Shown one piece after another: positions 1-59,382 of a DNA stretch of 64,000 bases. Origin of the DNA: Gemmatimonadales bacterium. Lineage in GTDB: Bacteria > Gemmatimonadota > Gemmatimonadetes > Gemmatimonadales > GWC2-71-9. Positions within the stretch are counted from its first letter, which is position 1. Each line of letters opens with the position of its first letter. Under the pieces are notes generated by a model. It was given only the letters and a program-made list of their open reading frames with translations, was not told the DNA's origin and ran no database searches. The position numbers and the translations under genes are program-made. The stretch is taken from contig DASXTV010000049.1 of assembly GCA_036505175.1 (NCBI GenBank), positions 33,110 through 97,109 on the forward strand, read 5' to 3'.

Positions 1-965
1 CGGACGCTCTGCGCGCTCTCGGGCACGTCTTCCATGCCAGGGCGCGTGAGCAGAATCGGGTTATCGAGGCGGGAGAGCATGTCGTGGACGACCAGCGTCG
101 GCACGATCGCCACCTTGGTCTGCGCGAGTGCGCGCGCGGTGCGCGCGACCACGCCCGAATCGAGCCCGGCCCACCCCTTTTCCTCGGTCGTCCATCCGGT
201 CAGGAAGTTGTTGTGCGCGGTGATGAACGCCGGATCTCGGGTTGCGGCCTGCACCACGCCGGCCATGTGCTCGATCGAGACGACGCCGGCGCGCGCCGCC
301 GTCAGCGCGTCGGTCTTGCCCAAGTGCGCCGCCACCGGAAGACGCAGTTTTTCGGCTTCGTCGAGCAGCGGCCGCAGCAGACTCGGCGTGATCTTGGTGT
401 AGACCTTGAGATAATCCACGCCGGCCACGGCATGCTGATCGACCGCGCGGCGTGCCTGGTCGGGTGTGGAGATGCCGGTCGCGTTGGGATACGTCGTCGG
501 CACTCCGTCGATCATGGCACCTGCGCTGAACATGCGCGGCCCGGTGATCGATCCCAAATTCACATCATTCCTGAGCGCGAGCACGGTATCACTACCACCG
601 TGCAGGTCGCGGACGGTCGTGACGCCCCAGACGATGTAGCGCCCCGCCGCCCAGCGTTCCACGTGCGCGTGGGCGTCGATCAACCCCGGGATGACCGTCT
701 TGCCGACTAGGCTGATGCGCTCGGCGCTTCTGGGAACCGGGATCTCGTTGACGTGCGCGATCGCTGCGACGTGGCCGTTGCGGATGATGATGAGCGCGTC
801 GGTCCTGGGCGCGCCGCCTGCACCGTCGATCAGCGTCGCGCCCTCGAGGGCAATCACGCGGTCACGGTGGACGCCGAGCTTGTCGGCAACCTTGCTGCAA
901 CCAGCGAGCAGAAACAGCAGCACCAACACAAGGGCCGTCCGGCCGTCGGGCCGTCCGACCGTCAC
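1..965 (-). CDS. Amidohydrolase-family metal-dependent hydrolase, lipoprotein-like N-terminus (3' end lies outside the window)
   Basis: Not in the ORF track because no stop lies inside the window. My translation of the minus strand from GTG at 965 gives VTVGRPDGRTALVLVLLFLLAGCSK... (signal plus LAGC lipobox-like). This is followed by ...ATLIDGAGGAPRTDALIIIRNGHVAAI...GKTVIPGLIDAHAHVE, the N-terminal HxH metal motif. The architecture matches the paralog at 11421-12737. The GTG overlaps the TGA of the upstream gene (GTGA). Confidence 0.75.
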   Translation of the reverse strand, partial: MTVGRPDGRTALVLVLLFLLAGCSKVADKLGVHRDRVIALEGATLIDGAGGAPRTDALIIIRNGHVAAIAHVNEIPVPRSAERISLVGKTVIPGLIDAHAHVERWAAGRYIVWGVTTVRDLHGGSDTVLALRNDVNLGSITGPRMFSAGAMIDGVPTTYPNATGISTPDQARRAVDQHAVAGVDYLKVYTKITPSLLRPLLDEAEKLRLPVAAHLGKTDALTAARAGVVSIEHMAGVVQAATRDPAFITAHNNFLTGWTTEEKGWAGLDSGVVARTARALAQTKVAIVPTLVVHDMLSRLDNPILLTRPGMEDVPESAQSV

Positions 966-1486: not shown

Positions 1487-1729
1487 TTAGCGGCGGCGTT
1501 TCTTCTTGGCTGTCTTTTTCTTTTTCTTCGCCGTCTTCTTCCGTGCCTTCGGCCGCGCCTTCTTCTTGGCGGCTTTCTTTTTCTTCTTGGCCTTCGGCTT
1601 GGAAGAGGGGCGCGACTCTTCCATCGGCATCGATGGGGTCGGCGCAGGCGTGGGCGCCGACGGGAACATCGGCTCCATGAACCCCGGGCCAGGCCAACTG
1701 CTTTCCGTTACATCCGTCTGCTCAAGCAT
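1487..1729 (-). CDS. Small protein with histone-H1-like Lys/Ala-rich C-terminal tail (putative nucleic-acid binding)
   Basis: 80 aa. The N-terminal half is Pro/Met/Glu-rich. The C-terminal 38 aa read KPKAKKKKKAAKKKARPKARKKTAKKKKKTAKKKRRR. AGGAG lies about 8 nt upstream of the ATG and a strong hairpin follows the gene. The plus-strand mirror ORF (poly-Phe) is implausible. Confidence 0.6.
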   Translation of the reverse strand: MLEQTDVTESSWPGPGFMEPMFPSAPTPAPTPSMPMEESRPSSKPKAKKKKKAAKKKARPKARKKTAKKKKKTAKKKRRR

Positions 1730-15389: not shown

Positions 15390-16478
15390 ATGCGCTTGCG
15401 TGTCCTGTCAATCGCCGTCATCGCCCTCGCCTGTCGCGACCCCGCTCCGGCAGCGGGACAAGGCGCGGACGACGCGCTGCGCCTGCCGGCGGGATTCAAG
15501 ATCTCGGTGTTCGCGGAGCATCTCCAAGGCGTCCGCTATCTCGCGCTCGGCCCGGGCAACGTGGTGTATGCCTCGCAGCCGGGCTCTGGCCTGATCGTTC
15601 GACTGCCCGATGCGAATCACGATGGTATCGCGGATAGCGCCGTGACGATCGCTGGTGGATTGAAGGGACCCTTCGGCATCGCTTTCCGCGGCGACACGAT
15701 GTACGTCGCTGAAGAAGGCGATATCAAACGCTTCGATCCGCGCGGCGCCGCGCCCGTGACGATCGTGCCCGACATTCCGGGTGGTGGTCACTCGACCCGC
15801 ACGATCGTGTTCGGGCCCGACGGCAAGCTGTATCTCGCGGTGGGCTCGTCCTGCAACCTGTGCGAAGAGCGCGACTCGCTGCGGGCCGCCGTGACGCAAT
15901 TCAATCCGAATGGTTCCGGAGGCCGTATCTTCGCGAAGGGACTGCGCAACACCGTCGGGATGGCGTTCAATCCGGCGACGGGCGAGCTCTGGGGCGGCAA
16001 TAACGATCGCGATAATCTGGGCGATGACGTACCGCCCGAGCACATCAACATCATCAAGGACGGCCGCAACTACGGCTGGCCCGACTGCTATCTCCCCGGC
16101 AGACCCAACCCCGAGTACGGATCGGCCGACTGCTCGAACGTCGAGCCGCCCGCCATCACAGTACAGGCGCATTCCGCTCCGCTCGGACTCGTGTTCTATA
16201 CGGGCTCGCAATTCCCGCGCGAATATCGCGGCGACGCGTTCGTCACATTGCACGGTTCGTGGAATCGCTCCGTGCCGACCGGGGCCAAGGTGGTGCGCGT
16301 CGAAGTGGACAGCGGCGGGCGTCGCGCAGTGGGCGTGGATGATTTCATCGTCGGCTGGCAGCGGCCCGACGGGACGCGCTGGGGCCGGCCGGTTGGTCTT
16401 CTGGTATTGCCGGATGGATCCTTGCTGGTAAGTGACGACATGGGTGGGAAAATCTGGAGGGTGAGCTATGGGCGGTAA
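15390..16478 (+). CDS. PQQ-dependent sugar (glucose/sorbosone) dehydrogenase-like beta-propeller
   Basis: 362 aa with a signal peptide. Segments typical of the soluble-GDH/sorbosone-DH family: GFKISVFAE, GPFGIAF, HSTRTIVFGPDGKLY, GLRNTVGMAFNP, GRNYGWP. Confidence 0.82.
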   Translation: MRLRVLSIAVIALACRDPAPAAGQGADDALRLPAGFKISVFAEHLQGVRYLALGPGNVVYASQPGSGLIVRLPDANHDGIADSAVTIAGGLKGPFGIAFRGDTMYVAEEGDIKRFDPRGAAPVTIVPDIPGGGHSTRTIVFGPDGKLYLAVGSSCNLCEERDSLRAAVTQFNPNGSGGRIFAKGLRNTVGMAFNPATGELWGGNNDRDNLGDDVPPEHINIIKDGRNYGWPDCYLPGRPNPEYGSADCSNVEPPAITVQAHSAPLGLVFYTGSQFPREYRGDAFVTLHGSWNRSVPTGAKVVRVEVDSGGRRAVGVDDFIVGWQRPDGTRWGRPVGLLVLPDGSLLVSDDMGGKIWRVSYGR

Positions 16479-17235
16479 GTGGGAACGTTGGAAAGTTGGA
16501 ATGTTGTTCGGGGCCGTGGCGATGGTTCTTTTCTTCGTTCCATCATTCCATCGTTCCGACATTCATTCGGAATACGTCAAGTTCCTCTCGGGCAAGGATA
16601 CAGTCACCGCCTACATCGCCTATCCGGAGCGGCCGCAGCCCGCGCCGGCAGTCATCGTCATCCACGAGATCTTCGGGATGTCGGATTTCATCCGGCAGAC
16701 GACCGAGCAGCTCGCCAAGGACGGCTTCGTCGCCATCGCGCCCGATCTCCTGTCGCGGCGCGGCGGCACACCAGCCACCCAGGACTCGGCCCGCAAGCTC
16801 ATCGCCACCTTGAATCCCGATACCGTCACGATGGACCTCGATGCGACGCGCGCCTATCTCAAGACGCTCAAGCCGGTGCGCACCAATGAGATCGGCGTGA
16901 TGGGCTTCTGTTGGGGTGGTGGGCAGAGCTTCCGTTACGCGACCAACGCGCCCGAGCTCAAGGCCTTCGTGGTGTGTTACGGTCCCAGCCCAAAGCCGGA
17001 GGATATGGCGAAGATCCGCGCCAAGGGCATGGGCGTGTATGCAGAGAATGATGCGCGCATCAATGCGGGCCTGCCCGACGCCGCGGCGGCCATGCGAGCC
17101 GCCGGCAAAGACTATCCGTACGCGATCTATCCAGGCGTGGGCCACGGATTCTTCCGGACGCGCGAGAAGCCGGAAGTGGCCGACAGCGCATGGAATGCGG
17201 TGATCCGCTTCTTCCGCGCGCAGCTGAAGCGTTAA
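16468..17235 (+). CDS. Dienelactone hydrolase family protein
   Basis: 255 aa. AVIVIHEIFG and GVMGFCWGG (nucleophile Cys) match the DLH fold, and GVGHGF is present. The N-terminal 30 aa are encoded by the repeat element, so the start is uncertain. Confidence 0.82.
   Translation: MGGKWERWKVGMLFGAVAMVLFFVPSFHRSDIHSEYVKFLSGKDTVTAYIAYPERPQPAPAVIVIHEIFGMSDFIRQTTEQLAKDGFVAIAPDLLSRRGGTPATQDSARKLIATLNPDTVTMDLDATRAYLKTLKPVRTNEIGVMGFCWGGGQSFRYATNAPELKAFVVCYGPSPKPEDMAKIRAKGMGVYAENDARINAGLPDAAAAMRAAGKDYPYAIYPGVGHGFFRTREKPEVADSAWNAVIRFFRAQLKR
16481..16564 (+). repeat. GTTGGAA-type inverted-repeat element, copy A (overlaps the 5' end of the dienelactone hydrolase gene)
   Basis: The left arm is GGGAACGTTGGAAAGTTGGAATGTTG. 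The right arm is GTTCCATCATTCCATCGTTCCGACATTC. It is homologous at DNA level to 58146-58242 and 57520-57579. Confidence 0.8.
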
Positions 17236-18578: not shown

Positions 18579-19770
18579 GGCCCTAATGTATCTGTTGCTG
18601 TTCGCATCGCCCCAATTGTTGCTGTTCCTCTACCTGCGCGAGCGCTTGCCGTTATCCGCGCGGCGGTGGCTCACCTTCGTCTTCGTCATCTTCAACATTC
18701 CCTGGGGCATCGTTGCCGTGCGGATGTTCTCCGGCAGCTTGTGGGGCATCAGTCGCGTCCCCTACATCGCGCCGTGGATCGCGTGGCAGTTTCTCGGCTG
18801 GATATTCTGTGCTCTGGTTGCCCTGTACATCGTCGCCAAAGGCGTGCGTAGTGCGTGGTACGTGGTGCGTGGGCGGTTGCTCAAGCAGTCCCACGCACCA
18901 CGCACCACGGACGACGCACGTTTGTCCAGACGACAGTTTCTCGCCCGTGCGACGTACGCCTACGGCGCGATCGGCGTCGGCTTCTCAGCCTATGGCATTT
19001 GGAGCGCCGAGCGGCTGCCGTCGATCACGCGGCGGACGCTCGTGTTCCCCGACCTCCCGCTGCCGCTCAACGGATTACGTATCGCCCATCTCTCGGACGT
19101 CCATGCCGGCATCCACATGTCCGAAGCGAAGATGCGGGAAATCGTCAAGCAGACGAACGCGCTTGGCGCGGACCTGATCGTGCAGACGGGAGACATGATC
19201 GACATCTCCCAATCGTTCATCCCCGACTACGTGCGCGCGTTTCGCGACCTGCACGCCCCCCTCGGCGTCGTCACGGTCCTCGGCAATCATGACCGCTACA
19301 CCGGCCAGGACGCGGTCATTCGCGGGGTCAAGGAAGCGGGACAGGTCTTTGTGAAGAACGGCGTGTATGTGATCGAGCGGGGCGGCGCGGCACTCGCGCT
19401 CGTCGGCATCGACGATCCGCGGAGCTGGCGCGCCGACGATCCCCAGGACACCGATCTCGATGAAGCACTGCGCGTCACGCCAGCCCCGCGCGACGCATTC
19501 CGTATCCTGCTCGCGCATCGCCCGGGCGCCTTCGACGGCGCCGCGCCCCGCGGCATTCCGCTCACCCTCGCCGGCCACATCCACGGCGGCCAGTTCTATC
19601 TGCCGGTGGTCGGTTGGTCACCCGGCCGGCTGATCACGAAGTACGTCATGGGCCACTTCACGCAGGGAACGAGCCAGTTGTACGTGAGCCGGGGGATCGG
19701 GGTAGTGGGCGTGCCGCTGCGCGTGTTTGTGCCGTCCGAAATCGCGGTGTTCGAGTTACGACGGGGGTAA
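18577..19770 (+). CDS. Membrane-anchored metallophosphoesterase (calcineurin-like)
   Basis: The start was re-set to ATG 18577 (MALMYLLLF..., several TM helices). Motifs: HLSDVHAG, GDMID, GNHD, GHIHGG. Confidence 0.85.
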   Translation: MALMYLLLFASPQLLLFLYLRERLPLSARRWLTFVFVIFNIPWGIVAVRMFSGSLWGISRVPYIAPWIAWQFLGWIFCALVALYIVAKGVRSAWYVVRGRLLKQSHAPRTTDDARLSRRQFLARATYAYGAIGVGFSAYGIWSAERLPSITRRTLVFPDLPLPLNGLRIAHLSDVHAGIHMSEAKMREIVKQTNALGADLIVQTGDMIDISQSFIPDYVRAFRDLHAPLGVVTVLGNHDRYTGQDAVIRGVKEAGQVFVKNGVYVIERGGAALALVGIDDPRSWRADDPQDTDLDEALRVTPAPRDAFRILLAHRPGAFDGAAPRGIPLTLAGHIHGGQFYLPVVGWSPGRLITKYVMGHFTQGTSQLYVSRGIGVVGVPLRVFVPSEIAVFELRRG

Positions 19771-50522: not shown

Positions 50523-51062
50523 ATGGGCAGGAAGTTCGGCTGGGAAGGCTTTTGGGGTTTCCGGGGCGGTCGAGCGTGGAGGGGGGGAAGGCGGCAGTGG
50601 TTCGGCGCCGGCGACATGAAGTACGTGATTCTGAAGCTGGTGCGGGATAAGCCACGTCATGGATACGAAGTCATGAAGGAGTTGGAGGAGCGCATGCACG
50701 GCTGCTACTCGCCGTCGCCGGGCACCGTGTATCCGACGTTGCAGTGGCTCGAGGATGAAGGACTCGTCGTCGCGCGGGACGTGGAAGGCAAGAAGGTTTA
50801 CGAAATCACCGACACAGGACGGACTTTTTTGGACGAGCACAAGGACATCGTCGAAGACATCTTCGATCGCGTGACCGAAACCGTCGAGCGCACCGTGGGT
50901 GGCTCGATGGTCGAGGTGAACCGGGCGTTAGGCCAGCTCGTGAAGACGGTCTATCGTACCGGCTGGAAGGCCGAGAGTGATGCCGCGCGCAAGCGCGTCG
51001 CCGAGGCGCTCGCGAAGGCTACGGCGGAGATTGAAGCGCTAGCGACCTCGTCGGTCGCGTAA
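50523..51062 (+). CDS. PadR-family transcriptional regulator with Gly/Arg/Trp-rich N-terminal extension
   Basis: The start was re-set to ATG 50523. The winged-helix segment is KYVILKLVRDKPRHGYEVMKELEERMHGCYSPSPGTVYPTLQWLEDEGLV. Confidence 0.85.
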   Translation: MGRKFGWEGFWGFRGGRAWRGGRRQWFGAGDMKYVILKLVRDKPRHGYEVMKELEERMHGCYSPSPGTVYPTLQWLEDEGLVVARDVEGKKVYEITDTGRTFLDEHKDIVEDIFDRVTETVERTVGGSMVEVNRALGQLVKTVYRTGWKAESDAARKRVAEALAKATAEIEALATSSVA

Positions 51063-52031
51063 TTCCTCGATGGCCCGCGTCACGTAGACGCGGGTCATCT
51101 GCTTTCTCCACGACAAATCAAAGTCGGTGTTGTCCATCGGCTTCGAAGGACGGTAGGCCGCTTCAGCGGCAGCGGCGATGGACTCGTCCGAGAGCGGCGC
51201 TCCTGTGAGCGCCGCACCCGCCTCCACAATCTCCTGCGGATGGCTTGCGACTCCACCCAACACGATGCGGGCGTCCGAGACGTTCGTGCCGTTCCACTGA
51301 ATCCATGCCGCCACGCCGAGGACCGGGAAATCGAAGGAACCGCGGCGCCGCAGCTTGTGGTAGACCGCGTCCCAGCCGTTCGGACCGGGAAGACGGACGT
51401 CTACCAGAATCTCATCGGGTTGCTTCGTGAGATAATTGATCCCGTCGTTGTGATAAAACCTGCCGGCGGGGACCACGCGCTCGCCCTGCGGCCCAACGAG
51501 CCGATACTCCGCACCGATCGCCACCATCACCGGCGCGACGTCGGACGAGCTCACCGCCCAGCAGCGCGGCGACGACGGCGCCACCCAGCAGATCTTGCCG
51601 TCTTTCTTCATGCAGAAGTCGATGGACTTCCGCCACTCGTAGCTCTGATTGTAGTAATTGCAGCGCGTGTCGAGACACAGGTTGCCGCCGAGGGTGCCCA
51701 TGTTGCGGAGCAGCGGGGTAGAGACAACGCGGGCGGCGGTACCGACGGCGGATCGCCGGATTGTCGGATGGTCGGATAGCTTCGTCAACGTCACGCCAGC
51801 TCCGAACACCATTCGATCCGCCGATCCGCCGATCCGACCATCCGTCATAAGCTCGGGGATCGCCATCAGCGAGATGACGGTCTTCGGCTCCTGGTGTCGG
51901 CGCTTCATGTTGGGATACAGGTCAGTGCCGCCGGCGACGAACATCCCGTCGGGGCCGGCGTCGGCCTTCATGCGAACGGCTTCGCTGAGCGTGCGCGGCT
52001 GCAGATACGTGAAGCTGGGAAGGCGCAGCAT
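51039..52031 (-). CDS. FAD-binding subunit of a xanthine-dehydrogenase-family molybdoenzyme, with a Cys-rich insertion (HcrB-like)
   Basis: 330 aa. AGGTDLYPNMK is the FAD-binding motif. The insertion CNYYNQSYEWRKSIDFCMKKDGKICWVAPSSPRC has spacing C124-x15-C140-x7-C148-x8-C157. Confidence 0.85.
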   Translation of the reverse strand: MLRLPSFTYLQPRTLSEAVRMKADAGPDGMFVAGGTDLYPNMKRRHQEPKTVISLMAIPELMTDGRIGGSADRMVFGAGVTLTKLSDHPTIRRSAVGTAARVVSTPLLRNMGTLGGNLCLDTRCNYYNQSYEWRKSIDFCMKKDGKICWVAPSSPRCWAVSSSDVAPVMVAIGAEYRLVGPQGERVVPAGRFYHNDGINYLTKQPDEILVDVRLPGPNGWDAVYHKLRRRGSFDFPVLGVAAWIQWNGTNVSDARIVLGGVASHPQEIVEAGAALTGAPLSDESIAAAAEAAYRPSKPMDNTDFDLSWRKQMTRVYVTRAIEELRDRRGR

Positions 52032-52066
52032 GAGTGACCTTACTCAACGGCGTCCGGGCCGTCCAG

Positions 52067-53128
52067 TCACGGAGACTGTGTCCCGGGGCGTCCGTTGAGG
52101 AATTCCACCCGTAGCAACCGCTGCTCTTCGTGCGCTGTGGGCGGTGGATGCCGGCGATCGCGCCGCGCCTCAGATTTCGACGCAATGTGGACCGGAACAG
52201 TCACGGCGGGAAGCAGATCGCCGAACGCGACGGTCACTTCGAGGTTCTTGAGCGACCGCTGCGCTCGCTCGGGCCGCGTGAGACGGAAGATCAGCTGGCG
52301 CAGCTGATAGGTATCGGAGTCCAGCCACGCGCTCCCGGCCACGTCGGGCGAGCCCAACCGCTCGGCGGCGAGGAAATCGACGCGCCACTCGGAGCGACCC
52401 GCGAGCGTGTCAATCCCGCCGAAGGAGAAACAATGCGCCTTGTGAAACACCGAGTCGGCGAGATCGATCACCGTCGGGAGCCGGAGTGTCCGCTCGAGCC
52501 GCCCTCGTGGTCCTGGTTGATTGATGATGAGCCCGCCGGGCTTGTAGGGTATGCGGGCATCGCTGCGCCGTTCGACGGTATCGACTACGAGTGCCGGCCC
52601 GCGCGCCGGCGGCGGGTCGTCCGAATGCTGGCGCTCGATCCAGTACCTGAACGGGTACGCGTCGGACAATAAGCGATAGCGCGCCGCGTTCTCGCGCAGC
52701 TGGTCGAAGATTGCCGCCAGCTCGGGCTCTGAGTCGCGCTGGGGGGGGCCGGGTTGCAGGCATGCGCGAGCGAGCACGATGACGGGAGGCAGCTCGATGG
52801 CCAGCGACCGCAGCAGGACGTGGAGCACGAGTGGATCGCCCGCCACCGAGATTACGGTATCGAACGGGAGGTAGCCGATGGAGCGAACCACGATCCGGTA
52901 ATCGCCCCGGGCGAGGTCGGGGAATGAGAACGCCCCCGAGTCGTTCGTGAACCGTCCTGCGACACCCGGTTCGATGGCGATCGTGCTGTACGAAAGGGGG
53001 AGGTTCGATTCGCGAGCGCGCACGTCACCGCGCAGGGCCTGAGCGGCAGCGGCTGCGCAACACGTCAACGCGAGAACCGGCACCGCACACGCGATCGCCT
53101 GTACGTGGAGCCGCGGCATACACGTCAC
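52067..53128 (-). CDS. Secreted protein with N-terminal carboxypeptidase-regulatory-like (CarboxypepD_reg) domain, remainder unknown
   Basis: 353 aa with a signal peptide. GDVRARESNLPL...TNDSGAFSFPDLARGDYRIVVRSIGY matches the CarboxypepD_reg pattern. Confidence 0.6.
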   Translation of the reverse strand: MTCMPRLHVQAIACAVPVLALTCCAAAAAQALRGDVRARESNLPLSYSTIAIEPGVAGRFTNDSGAFSFPDLARGDYRIVVRSIGYLPFDTVISVAGDPLVLHVLLRSLAIELPPVIVLARACLQPGPPQRDSEPELAAIFDQLRENAARYRLLSDAYPFRYWIERQHSDDPPPARGPALVVDTVERRSDARIPYKPGGLIINQPGPRGRLERTLRLPTVIDLADSVFHKAHCFSFGGIDTLAGRSEWRVDFLAAERLGSPDVAGSAWLDSDTYQLRQLIFRLTRPERAQRSLKNLEVTVAFGDLLPAVTVPVHIASKSEARRDRRHPPPTAHEEQRLLRVEFLNGRPGTQSP

Positions 53129-53157
53129 CTTATGCCGCGGCTCCTGGCTCGTCCAGG

Positions 53158-55095
53158 CTAGTGCGAGCTCTCTATCCGAGCCAACCCCATGCCGCGCACC
53201 GCCTCCGCCAATCGCACGAACTCGGCGCGATAGCCGTCCGGGTCCTTGCCGCGTGCTTCGCGAGCGGCGGCAATCACATGGCCGAGGTCGGCCTTTCCGC
53301 GGAAGTCCGAGTTCCGCAGCAACAGGCCAAACTCCGCGACCGCGGCCTGGAACTGGAAGTCTATCGAGGGCGCCTGACCTGCTTGGGCCGGCACCGGTTG
53401 CGAGATCAACCGGCTCTCATCGCCGTCGGGCCGCTTGTAGCGCACCTTCACGAACACGAGCTCAGGGCCCGCGGCGGTAGTCGACACCGCGTTGCGACGC
53501 TGGTAGCGGAGCGAATCAGGCATGCGAATCGTCACGTCGGTGTTCACACCGACCGGCACGACTTCGTAGAGAGCGGTGACGGAATGCCCGGAGCCGACTT
53601 CGCCGGCATCCTTCTTGTCGTCGGCGAAATCCTCGTTGCGCAGCATCCGGTTCTCATAGCCGATCAGCCGGTACGCGCGCACGCGCGCCGGGTTCCATTC
53701 CACCTGGATCTTCACGTCTTTCGCGACGGTGTAGAGCGTGCCGCCGAGCTCGTGTACCAGGACCTTCTGCGCCTCGGCAATGTTGTCGAGATAGGCGTAG
53801 TTGCCGTTGCCCTTGTCGGCGAGCTTTTCCATCTTGGCCGCCTGCAGGTTGCCTTCGCCCACGCCCAGCACTGTGAGGAAGACGCCGGTGCGGCGTTTCT
53901 CCTGGATCAGCTGCACCATCTCGGCATCGCTGGAGGCGCCGACGTTGAAGTCGCCGTCGGTGGCGAGAATCACGCGGTTGTTGCCGCCGCGGATGAAGTT
54001 GGCGACTGCCTCGTCGTAGGCGCGGCGAATCCCTTCGCCGCCTGCCGTGCTCCCGCCAGCCTCCAACCGCTCGATGGCGTCGAGGATCTTGTCCTTCTGG
54101 TCGCCCGGCGTGGACGGAAGGACCAGGCCGGCAGAACCGGCGTACACGACCATCGCGACCCGGTCCTTGGTGCGGAGCTGATTCACGAGCAACCGCATCG
54201 CCGATTTCACGAGGGGCAGCTTGTTCGCCGGCATCATTGAGCCGGAGACGTCGAGCAGGAACACGAAATTCGACGCCGGGAGGTTCTCTACCTTGACGCG
54301 TCGTGCTTGGAGGCCAATGCGCACCAGCTGGTGTTGCGGCTTCCAGGGCGCGGGTGCGACCTCGGTGTGGATCGCGAGCGGGTCGTCGCCGTCGGGCTCG
54401 GCGTAGTCGTAGGGGAAATAGTTCACCAGCTCTTCGATGCGGACCGCGTCGCGCGGCGGCAGCTGGCCGTCCTGCATGATGAAGCGCCGCATGTTGCTGT
54501 AGGACGCGCGGTCGACGTCGATCGAGAAGGTCGACAGGGGATCGGCGGCGACGGCGATGAAGGAGTTCTCGACGATCTCGTCGTACTGCTCGCGGTTGCC
54601 GGGCTGGCGTTGGTAGCGCCAGGCCTCAGTGCTGTCGTATGCCACACCGTCTACGACATAGAGTGCATCGGCGCGTGACGCCGCGGCGGCTCCGCGTATG
54701 CGGACGACACCATTAGCCGCACGCGCCCCATAGAGTCCAGTCACGACGACTTCCTGCAAGGCGACCGGGCTCGACGCGATCGTCAGATCCGCGACCACCG
54801 TCGCGTTTGCCGTGACGCGAAGCCCCTTTTTCTCGCCGGACGTGTAGCCGATGAACCGCGCAACCACCGTGTAGGTCCCAACCGGGACGTTCGCGATCAC
54901 GTAATGACCGTTGCCGTCGGTCATCGTCGCAAGGGACGTCCCGACCACGAGGACATTCGCTCCGACAATGGGCTGGCCGGTGGTCGCATCGCGGACGTTC
55001 CCCGCGATACTTCCGGTTTCGACGACGGCGAGGGTGGTTGGCGCGATGAGTGCGCCGATGAGCAATAGAATGAGACGAACGGGATAGACCGGCAT
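53158..55095 (-). CDS. Secreted von Willebrand factor type A protein (CarboxypepD_reg + YfbK-like vWA + C-terminal domain)
   Basis: 645 aa with a signal peptide. The N-terminal region is GNVRDATTGQPIVGANVLVVGT...GTYTVVARFIGY. The MIDAS motif is FLLDVSGSM. There is a YfbK-like C-terminal region. Confidence 0.85.
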   Translation of the reverse strand: MPVYPVRLILLLIGALIAPTTLAVVETGSIAGNVRDATTGQPIVGANVLVVGTSLATMTDGNGHYVIANVPVGTYTVVARFIGYTSGEKKGLRVTANATVVADLTIASSPVALQEVVVTGLYGARAANGVVRIRGAAAASRADALYVVDGVAYDSTEAWRYQRQPGNREQYDEIVENSFIAVAADPLSTFSIDVDRASYSNMRRFIMQDGQLPPRDAVRIEELVNYFPYDYAEPDGDDPLAIHTEVAPAPWKPQHQLVRIGLQARRVKVENLPASNFVFLLDVSGSMMPANKLPLVKSAMRLLVNQLRTKDRVAMVVYAGSAGLVLPSTPGDQKDKILDAIERLEAGGSTAGGEGIRRAYDEAVANFIRGGNNRVILATDGDFNVGASSDAEMVQLIQEKRRTGVFLTVLGVGEGNLQAAKMEKLADKGNGNYAYLDNIAEAQKVLVHELGGTLYTVAKDVKIQVEWNPARVRAYRLIGYENRMLRNEDFADDKKDAGEVGSGHSVTALYEVVPVGVNTDVTIRMPDSLRYQRRNAVSTTAAGPELVFVKVRYKRPDGDESRLISQPVPAQAGQAPSIDFQFQAAVAEFGLLLRNSDFRGKADLGHVIAAAREARGKDPDGYRAEFVRLAEAVRGMGLARIESSH

Positions 55096-55128: not shown

Positions 55129-57597
55129 TCAGACCTTGGCGAGCGACACAGCCTTTCCGTCCCCACCTTCTTGAGGTGTGGGTACGCGCGTCGGTTCGGG
55201 CCACGCGATGTCGGGGAAATGCTCGGGACCGTACCGTCCAGCTTCGCCTTTCTGCTTTCTGCGCAACGCTTTGAGCACCTTCTCGGGCGTGATCGGCACT
55301 TCGTCGATGCGAACCCCGACGGCATCGTACACGGCATTTGCCACGGCTGGCATCACCGGCAACAGCGGGCCCTGGCCGACTTCCTTCGCCCCGAACGGGC
55401 CGTTCGGGTCAGGATCCTCGATCAAGTACGTGATGACGTCGCACATCTCCAGCGTCGTGGGACTCTTGTATTCGAGCAGGGAAGGGATCTTGTGGACCAC
55501 TTTGAGGTCGCCGCGGTAAGCCATCTCCTCCATGAGCGCCTCGCCGAGCCCCATGTAGATCGAGCCTTCGACCTGCCCGATCACGGCGGCGGAATTGATC
55601 GATCGGCCCACGTCATGCGCGATCCAAATCGTCGGCACGCGCACGATGCCGGTTTCGGGATCGACGTCCACCGCAGCGACACAGGCGCTGTAGGAATAGG
55701 CAGGCGACGGCCCGACGCCGGCGCCGCGGTATGTTCCGGCGCTCTTGGGCGGCGTGTACGATCCCACCGTACCGACCGTCCCCTCCGCGGCTTCCGCCAG
55801 CTGGACCGCTTCGGCAAACAACATCCTGCGCTTCGGATCCTTGGTGTCGAAGACGCGGCCGCCCGCGAACGTCAGCCGCTCGACGGGCACCTCGAGCTTC
55901 TTTCCCGCATGGAGCGCGAGGATCTGACGCGCGCGCTCGGCGGCTTGCAATGCGGCGTTCCCGGTCATGAGCGTGACGCGGCTCGAGTAGCTGCCGAGGT
56001 CGACTGGGGTGAGGTCGGTGTCGGCGGTGACGACCGCGATGTCGAACGGATCGATGCCGAGCACTTCCGCGACGATGTAGGCGAGGATGGAATCCGATCC
56101 CTGCCCGATCTCCGTCGAGCCGCAGAACACCGTCACCCCGCCGCCGCGGTCGCATTTCAGCTGCACGCCCGAATGCGGCATGTTGTTCCAGTAGATCGGC
56201 AGGCCGGCGCCCGAGATGTAGCTCGAGCAGGCGAGTCCGACGCCGCGGCCCTCGGGAAGCTTGCGGAATTTCTTCTTCCACTCCGATCCCTCGACCACCT
56301 TCGCGATGCATTTGCCGAGCCCCATCGAGCCCACGCGCAGATAGTTCGCGGTGAGGGAGTTGGGGGGTACGAGGGTCTTCAAGCGCAGCTCCGCGGGGTC
56401 GATGCCCAGCTGTTCGGCGATCTTGTCGAGATGCACCTCGAGCGCGAACCGCGGCTGCGGCGTGCCGTGCCCGCGCTTGGGGCCGCACGGTGCCTTGTTC
56501 GTGAAGGCGCGCGCGCCCTGGAAGTGATAGCGCGGGACATTGTAGGTGACGGTCTGGAGGGCGCCCGTGTAGTACGTGCTCGCCACGCCGTACGAGCCGT
56601 AGGCGCCGCCGTCGAGCAGCGAGCGGAAGTGCATGCCCGTGATCGCGCCGTCGCGCTTCACGCCGGTCTTCACCCACATCAGCGTCGGGTGACGGCCGCG
56701 ATGACAGTAGAAGACTTCTTCGCGCGTCAGCGTGATCTTCACCGGGCGGCCGGTGATCATCGCGAGCTTCGCGACCGCAATCTCGTGACTGAACGGATCG
56801 CTCTTGCCGCCGAATCCACCCCCGTTCGGCGTTGCGATGACGCGAATTCGTGCGGCGGGCAGCTCCAGCACCTTGGCGAGGGCGCGATGGACGTAATGGG
56901 GTGTCTGCGTCGAGCTCCACAGCGTCAGCTTGCCATCTGGCGACCACGTCGCCACGGCGGCATGCTGCTCCATCGGCAGGTGCGTGCTCCCTTCAAAGAA
57001 GAAGAGATCCTCCCGCACCAGATCGGCCTCAGCGATGCCGGTTGCGGCGTCGCCGAATTCGAGATTGATCAGCTTATGGAGATTGCCGCTGTCGGCGTAC
57101 TCGTGAATCTGTGGCTCGGCATGCGTGACGGCGGTTGCGGCGGAGTCGAAGGACTTGAGCGGCTCGTAGACGACCTTGATGAGATCGAGCGCGGCCGTCG
57201 CGGTTTCTTCAGTCGTCGCGGCCACCGCCGCCACTGGATCGCCGATGAAGCGGACCTTCTCGAGGCACAGCGTATGCTCGTCCTGGGAGACGGGCAGGAT
57301 CCCGAACGGAATCGGCAGGTCGCGACCGGTGAGCACCGCTTGGACGCCTTCCAGTCCTTTTGCGGCCGTCGTATCGATCGAGATGATGCGTGCGTGCGGC
57401 TCGGTACTACGCAGCAGCTTGCAGTACAGCATGCGGGGGAACGCGAGATCGTCGGCGAAACGGGTCGCGCCCGTCACTTTCGCGACGGCGTCGACTTTGC
57501 GCAGCGCCTTGCCGATAATGGAATGTTGGACGGTTGGAATGTTGGAAGGAGAATTACCTTCCAACTTTCCAACCTCCCCACGTTTACGAGTGGCCAT
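55129..57597 (-). CDS. Molybdopterin-binding large subunit of a xanthine dehydrogenase/aldehyde oxidoreductase-family enzyme
   Basis: The start was re-set to ATG 57597 because the track ORF to 57975 overlaps the 2Fe-2S gene out of frame. Motifs: IGKALRKVDAVAKVTGATRFADD, GGGFGGK, GAKEVGQG. The N-terminal 25 aa are encoded by repeat copy C. Confidence 0.88.
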   Translation of the reverse strand: MATRKRGEVGKLEGNSPSNIPTVQHSIIGKALRKVDAVAKVTGATRFADDLAFPRMLYCKLLRSTEPHARIISIDTTAAKGLEGVQAVLTGRDLPIPFGILPVSQDEHTLCLEKVRFIGDPVAAVAATTEETATAALDLIKVVYEPLKSFDSAATAVTHAEPQIHEYADSGNLHKLINLEFGDAATGIAEADLVREDLFFFEGSTHLPMEQHAAVATWSPDGKLTLWSSTQTPHYVHRALAKVLELPAARIRVIATPNGGGFGGKSDPFSHEIAVAKLAMITGRPVKITLTREEVFYCHRGRHPTLMWVKTGVKRDGAITGMHFRSLLDGGAYGSYGVASTYYTGALQTVTYNVPRYHFQGARAFTNKAPCGPKRGHGTPQPRFALEVHLDKIAEQLGIDPAELRLKTLVPPNSLTANYLRVGSMGLGKCIAKVVEGSEWKKKFRKLPEGRGVGLACSSYISGAGLPIYWNNMPHSGVQLKCDRGGGVTVFCGSTEIGQGSDSILAYIVAEVLGIDPFDIAVVTADTDLTPVDLGSYSSRVTLMTGNAALQAAERARQILALHAGKKLEVPVERLTFAGGRVFDTKDPKRRMLFAEAVQLAEAAEGTVGTVGSYTPPKSAGTYRGAGVGPSPAYSYSACVAAVDVDPETGIVRVPTIWIAHDVGRSINSAAVIGQVEGSIYMGLGEALMEEMAYRGDLKVVHKIPSLLEYKSPTTLEMCDVITYLIEDPDPNGPFGAKEVGQGPLLPVMPAVANAVYDAVGVRIDEVPITPEKVLKALRRKQKGEAGRYGPEHFPDIAWPEPTRVPTPQEGGDGKAVSLAKV
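57520..57579 (-). repeat. GTTGGAA-type hairpin element, copy C (compact: 17-bp stem, 7-nt loop)
   Basis: GTTGGAATGTTGGAAGG-agaatta-CCTTCCAACTTTCCAAC (57533-57573), with 16 of 17 positions paired. It is flanked by further GTTGGA units and lies at the 2Fe-2S / large-subunit gene junction. Confidence 0.8.
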
Positions 57598-58114
57598 ACA
57601 ACGATTCCCGGGTGGGCTGCGCGACTTCCCCCCGCATCCGAGCCGCGGCCAGCTCCACCGCCTCGTAAATCTTGATGTAGCCGGTGCACCGGCACAGGTT
57701 GCCGGCCAGCGCGTCTTTGATCTCGTCTCGCGTCGGCTTGGGATTGGCGGCGAGCAGGGCCTCGGCGGCGAGCAAGAACGCGGGCGTGCAGTAGCCGCAT
57801 TGTGCCGCGCCGAGGTCGGCGAAAGTCTCTTGCAGGGGATGGAGCTTGCCGCCCTGCGCCATTCCCTCGACGGTGCGCACGGCATGACCGGCGCATGCGA
57901 GCCCCAGCACCAGGCACGACAGCACCGGCGTTCCATCCAGCAGCACGGTGCATGTACCGCACTCACCGAGCTCACAGCCGTGCTTCGTTCCCGTAAGACC
58001 CAGATCCTCGCGCACGACCTCGAGCAGCGTCTTGTGCGGCGCGAATGCTACTTCAGCCGCTTCGCCGTTCACGGTGAGCGCGATTTTGACTTTCGATTCG
58101 TTGCCCATGAGCAC
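57584..58114 (-). CDS. [2Fe-2S]-binding small subunit of the xanthine-dehydrogenase-family enzyme
   Basis: 176 aa. CELGECGTCTV is the plant-type cluster motif. CGYCTPAF...CRCTGY is the second cluster motif. ATG at 58108 is an alternative start. Confidence 0.9.
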   Translation of the reverse strand: MLMGNESKVKIALTVNGEAAEVAFAPHKTLLEVVREDLGLTGTKHGCELGECGTCTVLLDGTPVLSCLVLGLACAGHAVRTVEGMAQGGKLHPLQETFADLGAAQCGYCTPAFLLAAEALLAANPKPTRDEIKDALAGNLCRCTGYIKIYEAVELAAARMRGEVAQPTRESLYGHS

Positions 58115-58145
58115 GAGGTAATCTAGCTTTTGGGCCGGAAGGAGA

Positions 58146-58242
58146 GGGAACGATGGAAAGTTGCAATGTTGGAAAGTGGGTGTGGCGGAGAGCCTCGGTG
58201 GGGATGGTCATTCTTTCCATCATTCCATCATTCCAACTTTCC
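58146..58242 (+). repeat. GTTGGAA-type inverted-repeat element, copy B (overlaps the 5' end of the dipeptidase gene)
   Basis: The left arm is GGGAACGATGGAAAGTTGCAATGTTGGAAAG. The right arm is CTTTCCATCATTCCATCATTCCAACTTTCC. About 24 of 26 left-arm positions match copy A. Confidence 0.8.
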
Positions 58243-59382
58243 GCCCAGGATTACCGAGCTCAAGCCATTCGTATCCTCGGCACGGTGCCCCTCATCGACG
58301 GCCACAACGACCTCCCCGACGCGATTCGCGAACGGGGGGGCCTCGACTCGGTCAACCTGGGGGTGCACCAGCCGAAACTGATGACCGACCTCGCGCGGCT
58401 GCGCGCCGGCCGGGTCGGCGGGCAGTTTTGGGCCGCCTATGTCCCCGTGACGACGATGGACTCAGGACCCGGCCCAGCCGTCTACGCGCTCGAGCAGATC
58501 GATCTTACGCAGCGATTCTGCGCCAAATATCCGAACGTCATGGCGCTGGCGACGACGGCCGCGCAGGTCGAACGCAATTTCGCGGCCGCGAAGATCTCCT
58601 GCCTCATCGGGATCGAGGGCGGGCACGCGATTCAGAACTCCCTTGGCGCGCTACGGATGTTCTCCCGCCTCGGCGTGCGCTACATGACGCTGACGCATTG
58701 GCGCAGCCTCGATTGGGCAGTCGCGTCCACCGACACCTCACACCGCGGTCTATCGGACTTCGGTAAGCAGGTTGTGCTCGAGATGAACCGGCTCGGGATG
58801 CTGGTGGATCTGTCGCACGTCAACGATCAAACGATGTCCGATGCGCTGCACACATCGCGCGCGCCGATCATTTTCTCACATTCGTCCGCGCGGGCCCTCA
58901 CGAACCACGCGCGCGACGTGCCCGACTCGATTCTGAAGCTCGTGCCCGCGAACGGCGGCGTGGTGATGGTGAACTTCAACCCGGGATTTGTTTCGGAGCC
59001 CGTCCGCGCCTACCAGGACAGCATGAACGCATGGTCGAGCGCGCTGCGCGCGACAGGCGCCGACTCCGCCACGCGCGCGGACTCGATGCGCGCCTGGGAG
59101 GCGCGGGCGCCGCATGCAACGCTTGCGCAAGTGGCCGACCACATCGAGTACATCCGGAAGGTGGCCGGCGTCGATCACGTCGGGATCGGCTCCGATTTCG
59201 ATGGCATCACGGAGGTGCCGGTCGGCCTGGAAGACGTCTCCAAGTTCCCCGACTTGATTGCGGAGCTGCTGCGGCGCGGCTGGAGTGAGATGGACGTGAA
59301 GAAGGTCGCCGGCCTGAATACACTGCGAGTGCTGCGGGAGGCAGAGCGCGTCGCGGGCCTGATGCGGCGGACGCACCGGTAG
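58153..59382 (+). CDS. Membrane/renal-type dipeptidase (M19 family)
   Basis: 409 aa. Motifs: PLIDGHNDLP, GIEGGHAI, DLSHV, FSHSSA, GIGSDFDG. The start is ambiguous (58153 or ATG 58204) because the 5' end lies inside repeat copy B. Confidence 0.85.
   Translation: MESCNVGKWVWRRASVGMVILSIIPSFQLSAQDYRAQAIRILGTVPLIDGHNDLPDAIRERGGLDSVNLGVHQPKLMTDLARLRAGRVGGQFWAAYVPVTTMDSGPGPAVYALEQIDLTQRFCAKYPNVMALATTAAQVERNFAAAKISCLIGIEGGHAIQNSLGALRMFSRLGVRYMTLTHWRSLDWAVASTDTSHRGLSDFGKQVVLEMNRLGMLVDLSHVNDQTMSDALHTSRAPIIFSHSSARALTNHARDVPDSILKLVPANGGVVMVNFNPGFVSEPVRAYQDSMNAWSSALRATGADSATRADSMRAWEARAPHATLAQVADHIEYIRKVAGVDHVGIGSDFDGITEVPVGLEDVSKFPDLIAELLRRGWSEMDVKKVAGLNTLRVLREAERVAGLMRRTHR

Follow-up and report, generated by a model that had tools for sequence, protein, structure and literature searches.

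GTTGGAA-unit hairpins at gene starts in a Gemmatimonadales genome: probable translated members of a dispersed palindromic repeat family

What is a hairpin built from GTTGGAA units doing at the 5' ends of three unrelated genes? The question is raised by a stretch of 64,000 nucleotides from a Gemmatimonadales bacterium (GenBank assembly GCA_036505175.1, contig DASXTV010000049.1, positions 33,110 to 97,109), hereafter the window. Three such elements, called A, B and C, overlap the starts of genes for a dienelactone hydrolase (DLH), an M19 dipeptidase and the molybdopterin-binding large subunit of a Mo-enzyme. An initial annotation of the sequence had offered two roles for them, a translational control hairpin that sequesters the start codon and a mobile repeat that seeds N-terminal extensions. 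The feature is real and statistically robust. We consider it probable that A, B and C are dispersed palindromic repeats resembling the repetitive extragenic palindromic (REP) sequences and the Rickettsia palindromic element (RPE), which are passively translated and, in A and B, have been co-opted as signal peptide.

Three octamer-array hairpins and their host genes

All three elements were found where the initial annotation had placed them (Table 1). Their repeating unit is an octamer, GGAANGTT (rotated, GTTGGAAN), in which the eighth base is free, and each copy consists of three to four tandem octamers, a unique spacer and three to four inverted octamers. The occurrence of GTTGGAA in the window was judged against expectation and 100 shuffles: it is present 10 times where 3.35 are expected, a count that none of the shuffles reaches. 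The two-unit pattern has 18 matches against 3.5 expected, 17 of which fall inside the A, B and C loci. Read directly, the left arms of A and B agree at 24 of 26 positions and are translated in different frames, and the right arms share one frame; the conservation thus lies at the level of nucleotides and not of peptides, as had been proposed. Copy C forms a stem of 9 + 8 bp with a 7-nt loop, its first base lying 18 nt past the ATG at 57597, and the feature coordinates confirm that B and C bracket the gene of the 2Fe-2S subunit. Each copy also has the same orientation relative to its gene, as any palindrome must; the polarity proper lies in the arms, the G-rich one standing 5' on both strands.

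Prediction of the RNA fold gave a divided result. Copy C folds very well (z = -5.2, with a second value of -6.1) and copy A well (-42.2 kcal/mol, z = -3.2), but copy B folds no better than its shuffles (z = -0.6). In A and C, the ATG and the Shine-Dalgarno sequence lie outside the predicted stems. A scan of the whole window at the Rfam gathering thresholds returned no match to any family.

Copy A begins at the TAA stop (16476-16478) of an upstream GSDH-like gene. The ATG of the DLH gene overlaps the end of that gene by 11 nt and is preceded, 7 nt upstream, by a GGAGG Shine-Dalgarno sequence; the translated copy makes up DLH residues 3-33 (MGGKWERWKVGMLFGAVAMVLFFVPSFHRSD). The TAA stop at 57584-57586, which closes the 2Fe-2S subunit gene, lies 5 nt before the start of copy C; in the large subunit, this copy inserts 19 codons in frame (EVGKLEGNSPSNIPTVQHS) after codon 7. 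Copy B lies at a divergent promoter, with the dipeptidase ATG inside the first unit of its left arm, and codes for the predicted signal peptide MESCNVGKWVWRRASVGMVILSIIPSFQLSAQ/DYRAQA. A and C are typical junction copies of the family described below; B is N-terminal. None of the three genes offers an in-frame alternative start between its element and the conserved domain.

The peptide of copy B has an n-region and a hydrophobic core, and its putative LSA/QD site recurs in orthologues whose N-terminal sequence is unrelated. For copy A, the n-region and hydrophobic core are present in all 120 orthologues compared, with no clear cleavage site. In the right arms of both A and B, AAC has changed to ATC (Asn to Ile), which raises hydrophobicity and breaks the pairing. 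Together with the lost fold of B, this change fits protein-level selection taking over.

Distribution of the family and turnover at orthologous sites

The family was scanned in one genome per species (representatives of the Genome Taxonomy Database, GTDB) with a pattern of two units, a gap of 7-37 nt and two inverted units; the source genome of the window is not among the representatives matched. The pattern found 88 loci, most of them in metagenome-assembled genomes (MAGs) of soil Gemmatimonadales, with further clusters in one Chloroflexia MAG, one 'Roseobacter' MAG, Anaerolineae, Lewinellaceae and others. Membership in a dispersed palindromic repeat family, which had been suspected from the window, is borne out by these loci. 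An assembly artefact is rejected, as the same sites recur in many independent MAGs and metagenomes.

Clustering by flanking sequence reduced the loci to 63 independent GTTGGAAN hairpin sites, around which genes were called by GC3, the GC content of third codon positions. At 29 of them (46%) the hairpin starts between -10 and +20 nt of a stop codon, compared with 2.5% of 3150 random positions in the same loci. The stop-proximal sites include several convergent gene pairs, and at some sites the stop itself (TGA or TAG) is inside a degenerate outer unit. Other copies are in-frame in conserved proteins (Tgt, a GlcF-like Fe-S protein, a Y-family/ImuB-like polymerase, a CoxM-like FAD subunit) or in N-terminal signal peptides (M42 peptidase, S9 peptidase and others); the proposal of a translated N-terminal extension or signal peptide is supported. 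About half of the copies are non-coding and lie after stops or between convergent genes. The stop-proximal enrichment and the in-frame copies inside conserved genes mean that the family is not specific for gene 5' ends: the dominant site is just after a stop, and further copies are mid-gene. A scatter of copies without preference for 5' ends is what the initial annotation had named as refuting; it largely undoes the regulatory reading and leaves that of a REP seeding N-terminal extensions standing.

Arrays of GTTGGAAN contain no stop codon in any of the six frames, whichever base fills the free position (29% of unit shuffles share this property), and their three frames all yield one cyclic 8-mer peptide. 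The copies are read through as protein because no frame is stopped. The mode is 3-4 units per arm, and in 99 of 122 hairpins the two arms are equal or one unit apart; the non-unit loop measures 0-38 nt. Watson-Crick pairs occupy 44% of the free eighth positions against 33% in shuffles, so that covariation lends poor support to an RNA structure. There are sister families with other units of 7-10 nt; sister units are GGCGGTTN, GACGGAAN, GGATCGGC and GGACGGNC. By resemblance to the thrombin aptamer GGTTGGTGTGGTTGG, an arm of (GGAAGGTT)n could form a two-tetrad G-quadruplex; the GGAAGGTT arm also contains a Shine-Dalgarno-like GGAAGG and TTG codons in all frames.

The polarity of the arms is strict. 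An unbiased metagenome sample held 134 arrays with at least three units, 55 with an inverted partner downstream, 0 with one upstream (G-first 55:0) and 79 without a partner. A motif-blind scan of 1.53 Mb gave 143 hairpins with periodic arms, in which all 94 GTTGGAAN hairpins were G-first; the 49 hairpins of other motifs (GTGAAACG, GCGGATT, GAAGGAT, GGAACGCG and others) comprised 43 G-first, 5 C-first and 1 neutral. Relative to the preceding gene, tandem-only arrays showed a weak and not decisive preference for the G-rich reading (15 versus 7).

Some partnerless arrays stand between a stop codon and a canonical terminator. On the metagenome contigs L170 (2977-3007), L190 and L221, tandem-only GTTGGAAN arrays lie directly at the stop of an orthologous gene and are followed by a canonical terminator with GC stem and T-run; since this comes after, the array is not itself the terminator. 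Other metagenome contigs of 37-54% GC (L229 at 1085-1395, L197 at 1360-1558, L191 and L204) carry pure GTTGGAAN arrays of up to about 39 units with no inverted partners. On the viral-labelled contigs L002 and L019, GTTGGAAN arrays adjoin short tandem arrays of GGACACGAA, ATGGACACAG and GGTGGAAT, which suggests that different short-unit arrays can occur in clusters.

Ten syntenic Gemmatimonadales loci align to positions 47-60 kb of the window at 75-85% identity. Site C is filled in the window and in L082, L075 and L037. In six others the site is cleanly empty and reads M-A-x-x-R-[IV]-IGK. When the Mo genes are joined in a neighbour-joining tree, every filled genome adjoins an empty one, so the distribution is patchy. 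The filling of L037 consists of GACGGAAN/NTTCCGTC units, both arms having changed together. At site B, the N-terminal peptide ends in AQ/DYRAQA in every orthologue and the DNA that encodes it varies. The arms are of GGAANGTT in the window and L107, of GGCGGTTN/NAACCGCC with unchanged layout in L031 and L089, and of GACGGAAN in L037; L082 has a relic of the right arm only, and L064 and L075 have plain signal peptides and no repeat.

From DIHSEYVK on, the 120 closest DLH orthologues (site A) share 77-91% identity. Their N-termini of 35-45 residues are hypervariable and palindrome-encoded. At least eight classes can be told apart, and in these the n-region and c-region peptides are reverse-complement readings of each other. 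Among eight of these orthologues compared as DNA, six carry a strong hairpin, each of a different motif family (periods of 8-11 nt). Five of the six hairpins have z = -4.3 to -9.9; that of L234 has its left arm upstream of the called start. The remaining two have plain signal peptides and no hairpin. Most of the 120 preserve the frame that begins at M[DG]GK, a few being called from a later start, and its survival through this turnover argues that the region is translated. The N-terminus of one orthologue, P0004, is chimeric when compared with the window and P0026: its left arm is of the GGACGGNC-type family (SDGLTVGRSVG) and its right half is identical to that of the window (AMVLFFVPSFHRSD), which implies recombination in the loop between alleles of different repeat families.

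The presence or absence of the insertion in relatives had been named as a check: all three genes have orthologues with the hairpin, without it, and with other motif families at the same site. The hairpin is therefore dispensable. At sites A and B it is optional, and the predicted signal peptide is the constant feature.

The 64-kb window holds three to four sister elements beside A, B and C (Table 1). One of them lies in the FAD-binding subunit gene, whose product matches a protein from a Gemmatimonadales MAG at 100% identity. In nine syntenic relatives, a GTTGGAAN hairpin (RLDGWNVGTCVTLSALSNLPTFQHS) occupies exactly these codons. Eight GTTGGAAN orthologues of this gene were compared at codons whose amino acid is invariant. 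The element exceeds its flanks in third-position identity (0.88 versus 0.62) and has the lower GC3 (0.55 versus 0.83); these contrasts point to constraint or homogenisation at the nucleotide level. In L082 (6601-6638) and 14 orthologous proteins (e.g. P0149), only a right-side array is present, four units of GACCGCCN with the peptide TARPPDRLTA; this lineage has no recognisable left arm, and the protein family indicates an intact gene.

The element at 18830-18933 is translated as the linker VRSAWYVVRGR...SHAPRTTDDAR, which stands directly before a twin-arginine-like SRRQFLA motif and joins it to the N-terminal membrane domain of the metallophosphoesterase. The half-array at 931-964 begins at a GTG that overlaps an upstream TGA, and encodes the n-region of a lipoprotein signal peptide (MTVGRPDGRTALVLVLLFLLAGC). 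Not far from it, at 1487-1729 (minus strand), is an open reading frame (ORF) of 80 aa with an extremely Lys/Ala-rich, histone-H1-type-like C-terminal tail (ending KPKAKKKKKAAKKKARPKARKKTAKKKKKTAKKKRRR), overlapped by several alternative ORFs. The GC-rich hairpin at 52040-52096, which ends upstream of the FAD-subunit ATG (52031) and has a weaker periodicity, is a possible sister element. Two genes separate the large subunit from the FAD subunit (52067-55095, minus strand), one CarboxypepD_reg-like (353 aa) and the other with CarboxypepD_reg, vWF_A/VWA and YfbK_C domains (645 aa). Both are missing in L066, L107, L089, L064, L075, L042 and L082, where the subunit genes are about 20-70 nt apart; L037 also lacks both and has about 840 nt at that place, and L031 and L081 each keep part. 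The segment is an insertion or deletion polymorphism of about 3.1 kb within the operon.

Table 1. Repeat elements of the window and the genes that carry them (positions in the window)
Feature	Coordinates	Strand	Description
Copy A	16474-16565	+	4 units, 28-nt spacer, 4 inverted units
Copy A, left arm	16474-16505		GGTAAGTG GGAACGTT GGAAAGTT GGAATGTT
Copy A, spacer	16506-16533
Copy A, right arm	16534-16565		TTCGTTCC ATCATTCC ATCGTTCC GACATTCA
Copy B	58147-58242	+	4 units, 32-nt spacer, 4 inverted units
Copy B, left arm	58147-58178		GGAACGAT GGAAAGTT GCAATGTT GGAAAGTG
Copy B, spacer	58179-58210
Copy B, right arm	58211-58242		TTCTTTCC ATCATTCC ATCATTCC AACTTTCC
Copy C	57520-57578	-	About 3.75 units, 7-nt loop (57550-57556), 2.75 inverted units
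DLH gene	16468-17235	+	Pfam PF01738, domain from residue 47
M19 dipeptidase gene	58153-59382	+	Pfam PF01244, domain from residue 43
Mo-enzyme (molybdopterin-binding) large subunit gene	55129-57597	-	Pfam Ald_Xan_dh_C, MoCoBD_1, MoCoBD_2
2Fe-2S small subunit gene	57584-58108	-	Assigned by Pfam; copies B and C on its flanks
FAD-binding subunit gene	51039-52031	-	GGATCGGC-type hairpin at codons ~62-95
GGATCGGC-type hairpin (x4 ... inverted x4)	51746-51846	-	In-frame in CoxM/HcrB-like FAD-binding subunit, codons ~62-95
GTGCGTGG-type hairpin	18830-18933	+	44-nt arms, 80% complementary; inside metallophosphoesterase gene
Half-array	931-964	-	Four tandem GGCCGTCN octamers (minus strand GACGGNCN), no inverted partner
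GC-rich hairpin (CTCAACGGCGTCCGGGCCGTCC...GGGGCGTCCGTTGAG)	52040-52096		Spans the stop (52067-52069) of ORF 52067-53128; z = -3.0

Possible origins and roles of the repeats

The REP seeding N-terminal extensions, one of the two roles first offered, is the reading that we hold to be probably right. The arms are arrays of three to four 8-nt units (GTTGGAAN ... NTTCCAAC) around a locus-specific spacer, with the G-rich array 5'. The family accumulates at gene boundaries, after stops and at operon junctions in the manner of REPs, with an RPE-like tolerance inside ORFs. A copy landing at an overlapping stop/start junction or in a permissive loop would simply be read through. In A and B, the G-rich arm would then provide a K/R/W-rich n-region, and the spacer and right arm the hydrophobic core of a Sec-type signal peptide. 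In C, a cytoplasmic Mo-enzyme subunit would carry 19 extra residues in its N-terminal tail, a polymorphic and dispensable insertion. The copies appear to be primarily selfish or neutral repeats, with any effect on the RNA (coupling, or a REP-like stalling on or stabilising of the upstream message) probably secondary. Such a secondary role at junctions is plausible, and it is not essential because hairpin-free orthologues exist.

Several observations weigh against this reading. Between filled and empty versions of site C there is no target-site duplication, only a 57-nt insertion between CGT-GGG and ATT-ATC. No transposase and no REP-associated tyrosine transposase (RAYT) was found among the ORFs near the arrays of L115 and L141 or around the window copies. 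Loops are unique at every locus, even among the 7 copies of one MAG and the 13 of another. A classical cut- or copy-and-paste element, such as a miniature inverted-repeat transposable element (MITE), an RPE or a REPIN, would be expected to carry its loop along, and sharing of the arms alone does not fit this. In 120 orthologues of the FAD subunit, at least five arm families surround a conserved loop, (I/V)G-x-x-(V/L)TL. Compared with the solved homologue HcrB (1RM6 chain B), the FAD subunit differs by just two residues in length at the element, with no net gain, and the right-arm peptide SDHPTIRRS aligns with AEHDAIRTT of HcrB; the arms therefore replace native sequence and do not add to it, the loop being host sequence. 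Both the strict G-first polarity and the retention of the 7-nt core at synonymous sites across the FAD orthologues hint at an active function or directed writing more than at passive junk. Finally, a hairpin of one kind or another persists at the junction in most DLH orthologues, perhaps because structure is selected for. Arm-only sharing, polarity, the free eighth base, the conserved core at synonymous sites and the half-arrays together leave room for a sequence-specific reader, which would be a protein binding DNA or RNA, or an in-situ writer, and we infer that a sequence-specific factor maintains the 7-nt core.

A rival reading is a functional inter-cistronic RNA hairpin, whose stem would form in the mRNA directly behind the upstream stop codon, 6-18 nt inside the downstream cistron. 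It would block independent loading of the 30S subunit and leave the downstream gene to be translated solely through coupling to the upstream gene; in a variant or in addition, it would stall terminating ribosomes as REPs do or protect the upstream message from 3'-exonucleases. This has some chance of being correct, although we doubt it. The strong stop-proximal enrichment and the exact placement of A and C at overlapping stop/start junctions are in its favour, as are the strong predicted folds of A, C and five of the eight DLH orthologues with wholly different arms. One source, citing its ref. 17, also reports that REPs less than 15 nt from a stop stall ribosomes (PMC12306157). However, hairpin-free orthologues exist at all three sites, copy B has neither an upstream stop nor a significant fold, and the weak pairing of the eighth bases (44% vs 33%) means that pairing is not tightly kept. 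Mid-gene copies in conserved genes cannot play this role, and partnerless arrays occupy the same post-stop position upstream of canonical terminators.

The conserved 7-nt core and free eighth base would also be accounted for by double-stranded DNA sites, bound by a putative nucleoid protein, regulator or transposase, with convergent arrays acting cooperatively; by analogy this may be so, but we regard it as unlikely. The relative orientation of the arrays is strict and their spacing variable (7 to 40 nt), there are several related motif 'dialects' per genome, the core is conserved at synonymous sites, and there is a precedent in Geobacter, where insertion sequence (IS) elements lie at a fixed distance from comparable sites (PMC2700814). 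Yet a spacing of 8 bp would put successive sites on different faces of the helix, and a position right after stops and inside ORFs is odd for a transcriptional regulator.

A bolder proposal, which we rate as quite improbable, is that the arrays are written in place by a dedicated activity that adds G-rich tandem repeats to the 3' ends of both strands at a break or at staggered nicks. A telomerase-like or target-primed reverse transcriptase could be such a writer, or the arrays could be the footprint of repair or of a transposase. This would explain why the G-rich strand runs 5' to 3' toward the centre, the polarity of two telomeres fused head to head. It would likewise explain the arm-only sharing, the native, protein-constrained spacer of the FAD subunit, the one free base per unit and the partnerless arrays.

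The control hairpin specific to the three genes, which would sequester the start codon or Shine-Dalgarno sequence and was the leading proposal of the initial annotation, is now highly improbable. Only copy B speaks for it: its ATG is in the first octamer, and the minimum-energy fold pairs the Shine-Dalgarno-like GGAAGGAG with the distal right arm. But this fold is not significant, the start signals of A and C are outside the stem, and many orthologues lack the hairpin altogether; the distribution of a family without 5'-end specificity largely refutes it. Selection on the amino acids of a protein-level motif (WNVGTLER / PTFQxSN), the DNA repeat being its by-product, might be suggested by the many translated copies, several of which end in a common ...LSAQ cleavage-like context, but it is refuted by the frame difference between A and B and by the non-coding half of the family, and further contradicted by the AT-ending rare codons kept at synonymous positions in a 65% GC genome and by orthologous signal peptides built from unrelated peptides. 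A CRISPR was rejected for want of regularly spaced repeat-spacer units, and an integron attC site because the GTTRRR-type units come first and the YYYAAC-type last, the reverse of R''(RYYYAAC) ... R'(GTTRRRY).

Relation to known repeats and meaning of the family

The closest published description is that of the paired tandem-octamer sites of Geobacter metallireducens. This genome has four-octamer tandem arrays of GTTGCTYN in 24 pairs, the two members of a pair lying on opposite strands at a variable distance and the outer units being degenerate (PMC2700814). The sites form classes 1-3 with the consensus sequences GTTGCTYN, TCTCCGTS and MTYCTGA, each of 3-5 tandem units of 7-9 nt (Aklujkar et al., 2009, PMC2700814). 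They are absent from the sister species, lie next to and between genes and have no known function; IS elements occur at a fixed distance from them, and they were read, without tests, as sites for IHF/HU or a global regulator (PMC2700814). The GTTGGAAN family likewise has paired arrays, typically of 3-4 units, on opposite strands with variable spacing, and several related classes in one genome. The motif differs, with GTTG alone in common, and so does the phylum. In-frame translation, proximity to stop codons, G-first polarity and turnover at orthologous sites do not appear in the Geobacter paper (PMC2700814). No IS elements were seen in the Gemmatimonadales loci inspected, though no systematic search was made.

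Like REPs, which RAYT transposases mobilise, and bacterial interspersed mosaic elements (BIMEs), the family consists of short imperfect palindromes in many dispersed copies, with enrichment just downstream of stops (29/63 here) and at operon junctions. In both, related genomes can have different families at an orthologous site, and a target-site duplication is lacking. Stop-proximal REP copies can affect translation and mRNA stability (PMC12306157). In contrast, REPs are extragenic, whereas A, B and C are all inside ORFs and others are in Tgt, GlcF, a Y-family polymerase and the FAD subunit. The arms of REPs are not tandem arrays, the spacer of REPINs is conserved where the loops here are unique, and the GTTGGAAN family has no GTAG-type 5' tetranucleotide.

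The RPE was described as a palindromic repeat in-frame in many unrelated functional genes (Ogata et al., 2000, as outlined in PMC10969869). The in-frame insertion of a palindrome into unrelated functional genes, a peptide tolerated by the fold and its retention at orthologous positions are common to both. RPEs measure about 100-150 bp, have a conserved internal sequence and peptide and are limited to Rickettsia; the elements here measure 55-100 nt and have only periodic arms in common, and at the FAD-subunit site the arms replace native sequence. A MITE should show a target-site duplication, which site C does not, and a conserved internal sequence, which the unique loops do not provide. The STRR heptamer arrays of cyanobacteria, reportedly described by Mazel et al. 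in 1990 and Elhai et al. in 2008, are said to be dispersed short-unit tandem arrays with hairpin potential and a unit that is not a multiple of three. They are reportedly mainly simple direct arrays in intergenic DNA, with no description of polar inverted pairing, stop proximity or translation as signal peptide. Our search of the literature met no earlier account of the motif, of its presence in Gemmatimonadales or of signal peptides encoded by it.

Palindromic interspersed repeats are a known kind of element, and the GTTGGAAN family with its in-frame use as signal peptide is a new form of it. For annotation, it matters that these elements create recurrent 'WNVGTLER / PTFQRSNV' peptides at protein termini in soil MAGs (Gemmatimonadales, Chloroflexi and others), and that stop-free repeats can shift the called starts and ends of genes. 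For protein evolution, they show clearly that palindromic repeats can live in functional genes, those of conserved enzymes among them, in organisms other than Rickettsia. A non-coding repeat has here been recruited as a predicted signal peptide, and orthologous signal peptides have been rebuilt from different families at 80-90% identity of the mature protein. The strict G-first polarity, the sharing of arms alone and the turnover of arm families around a conserved loop match no characterised bacterial repeat family, and these three features point to a recognition or copying system, which is testable now that the motif, its dialects and hundreds of loci are defined. Should in-place writing prove true, gene ends and signal peptides would be continually rewritten in several bacterial phyla.

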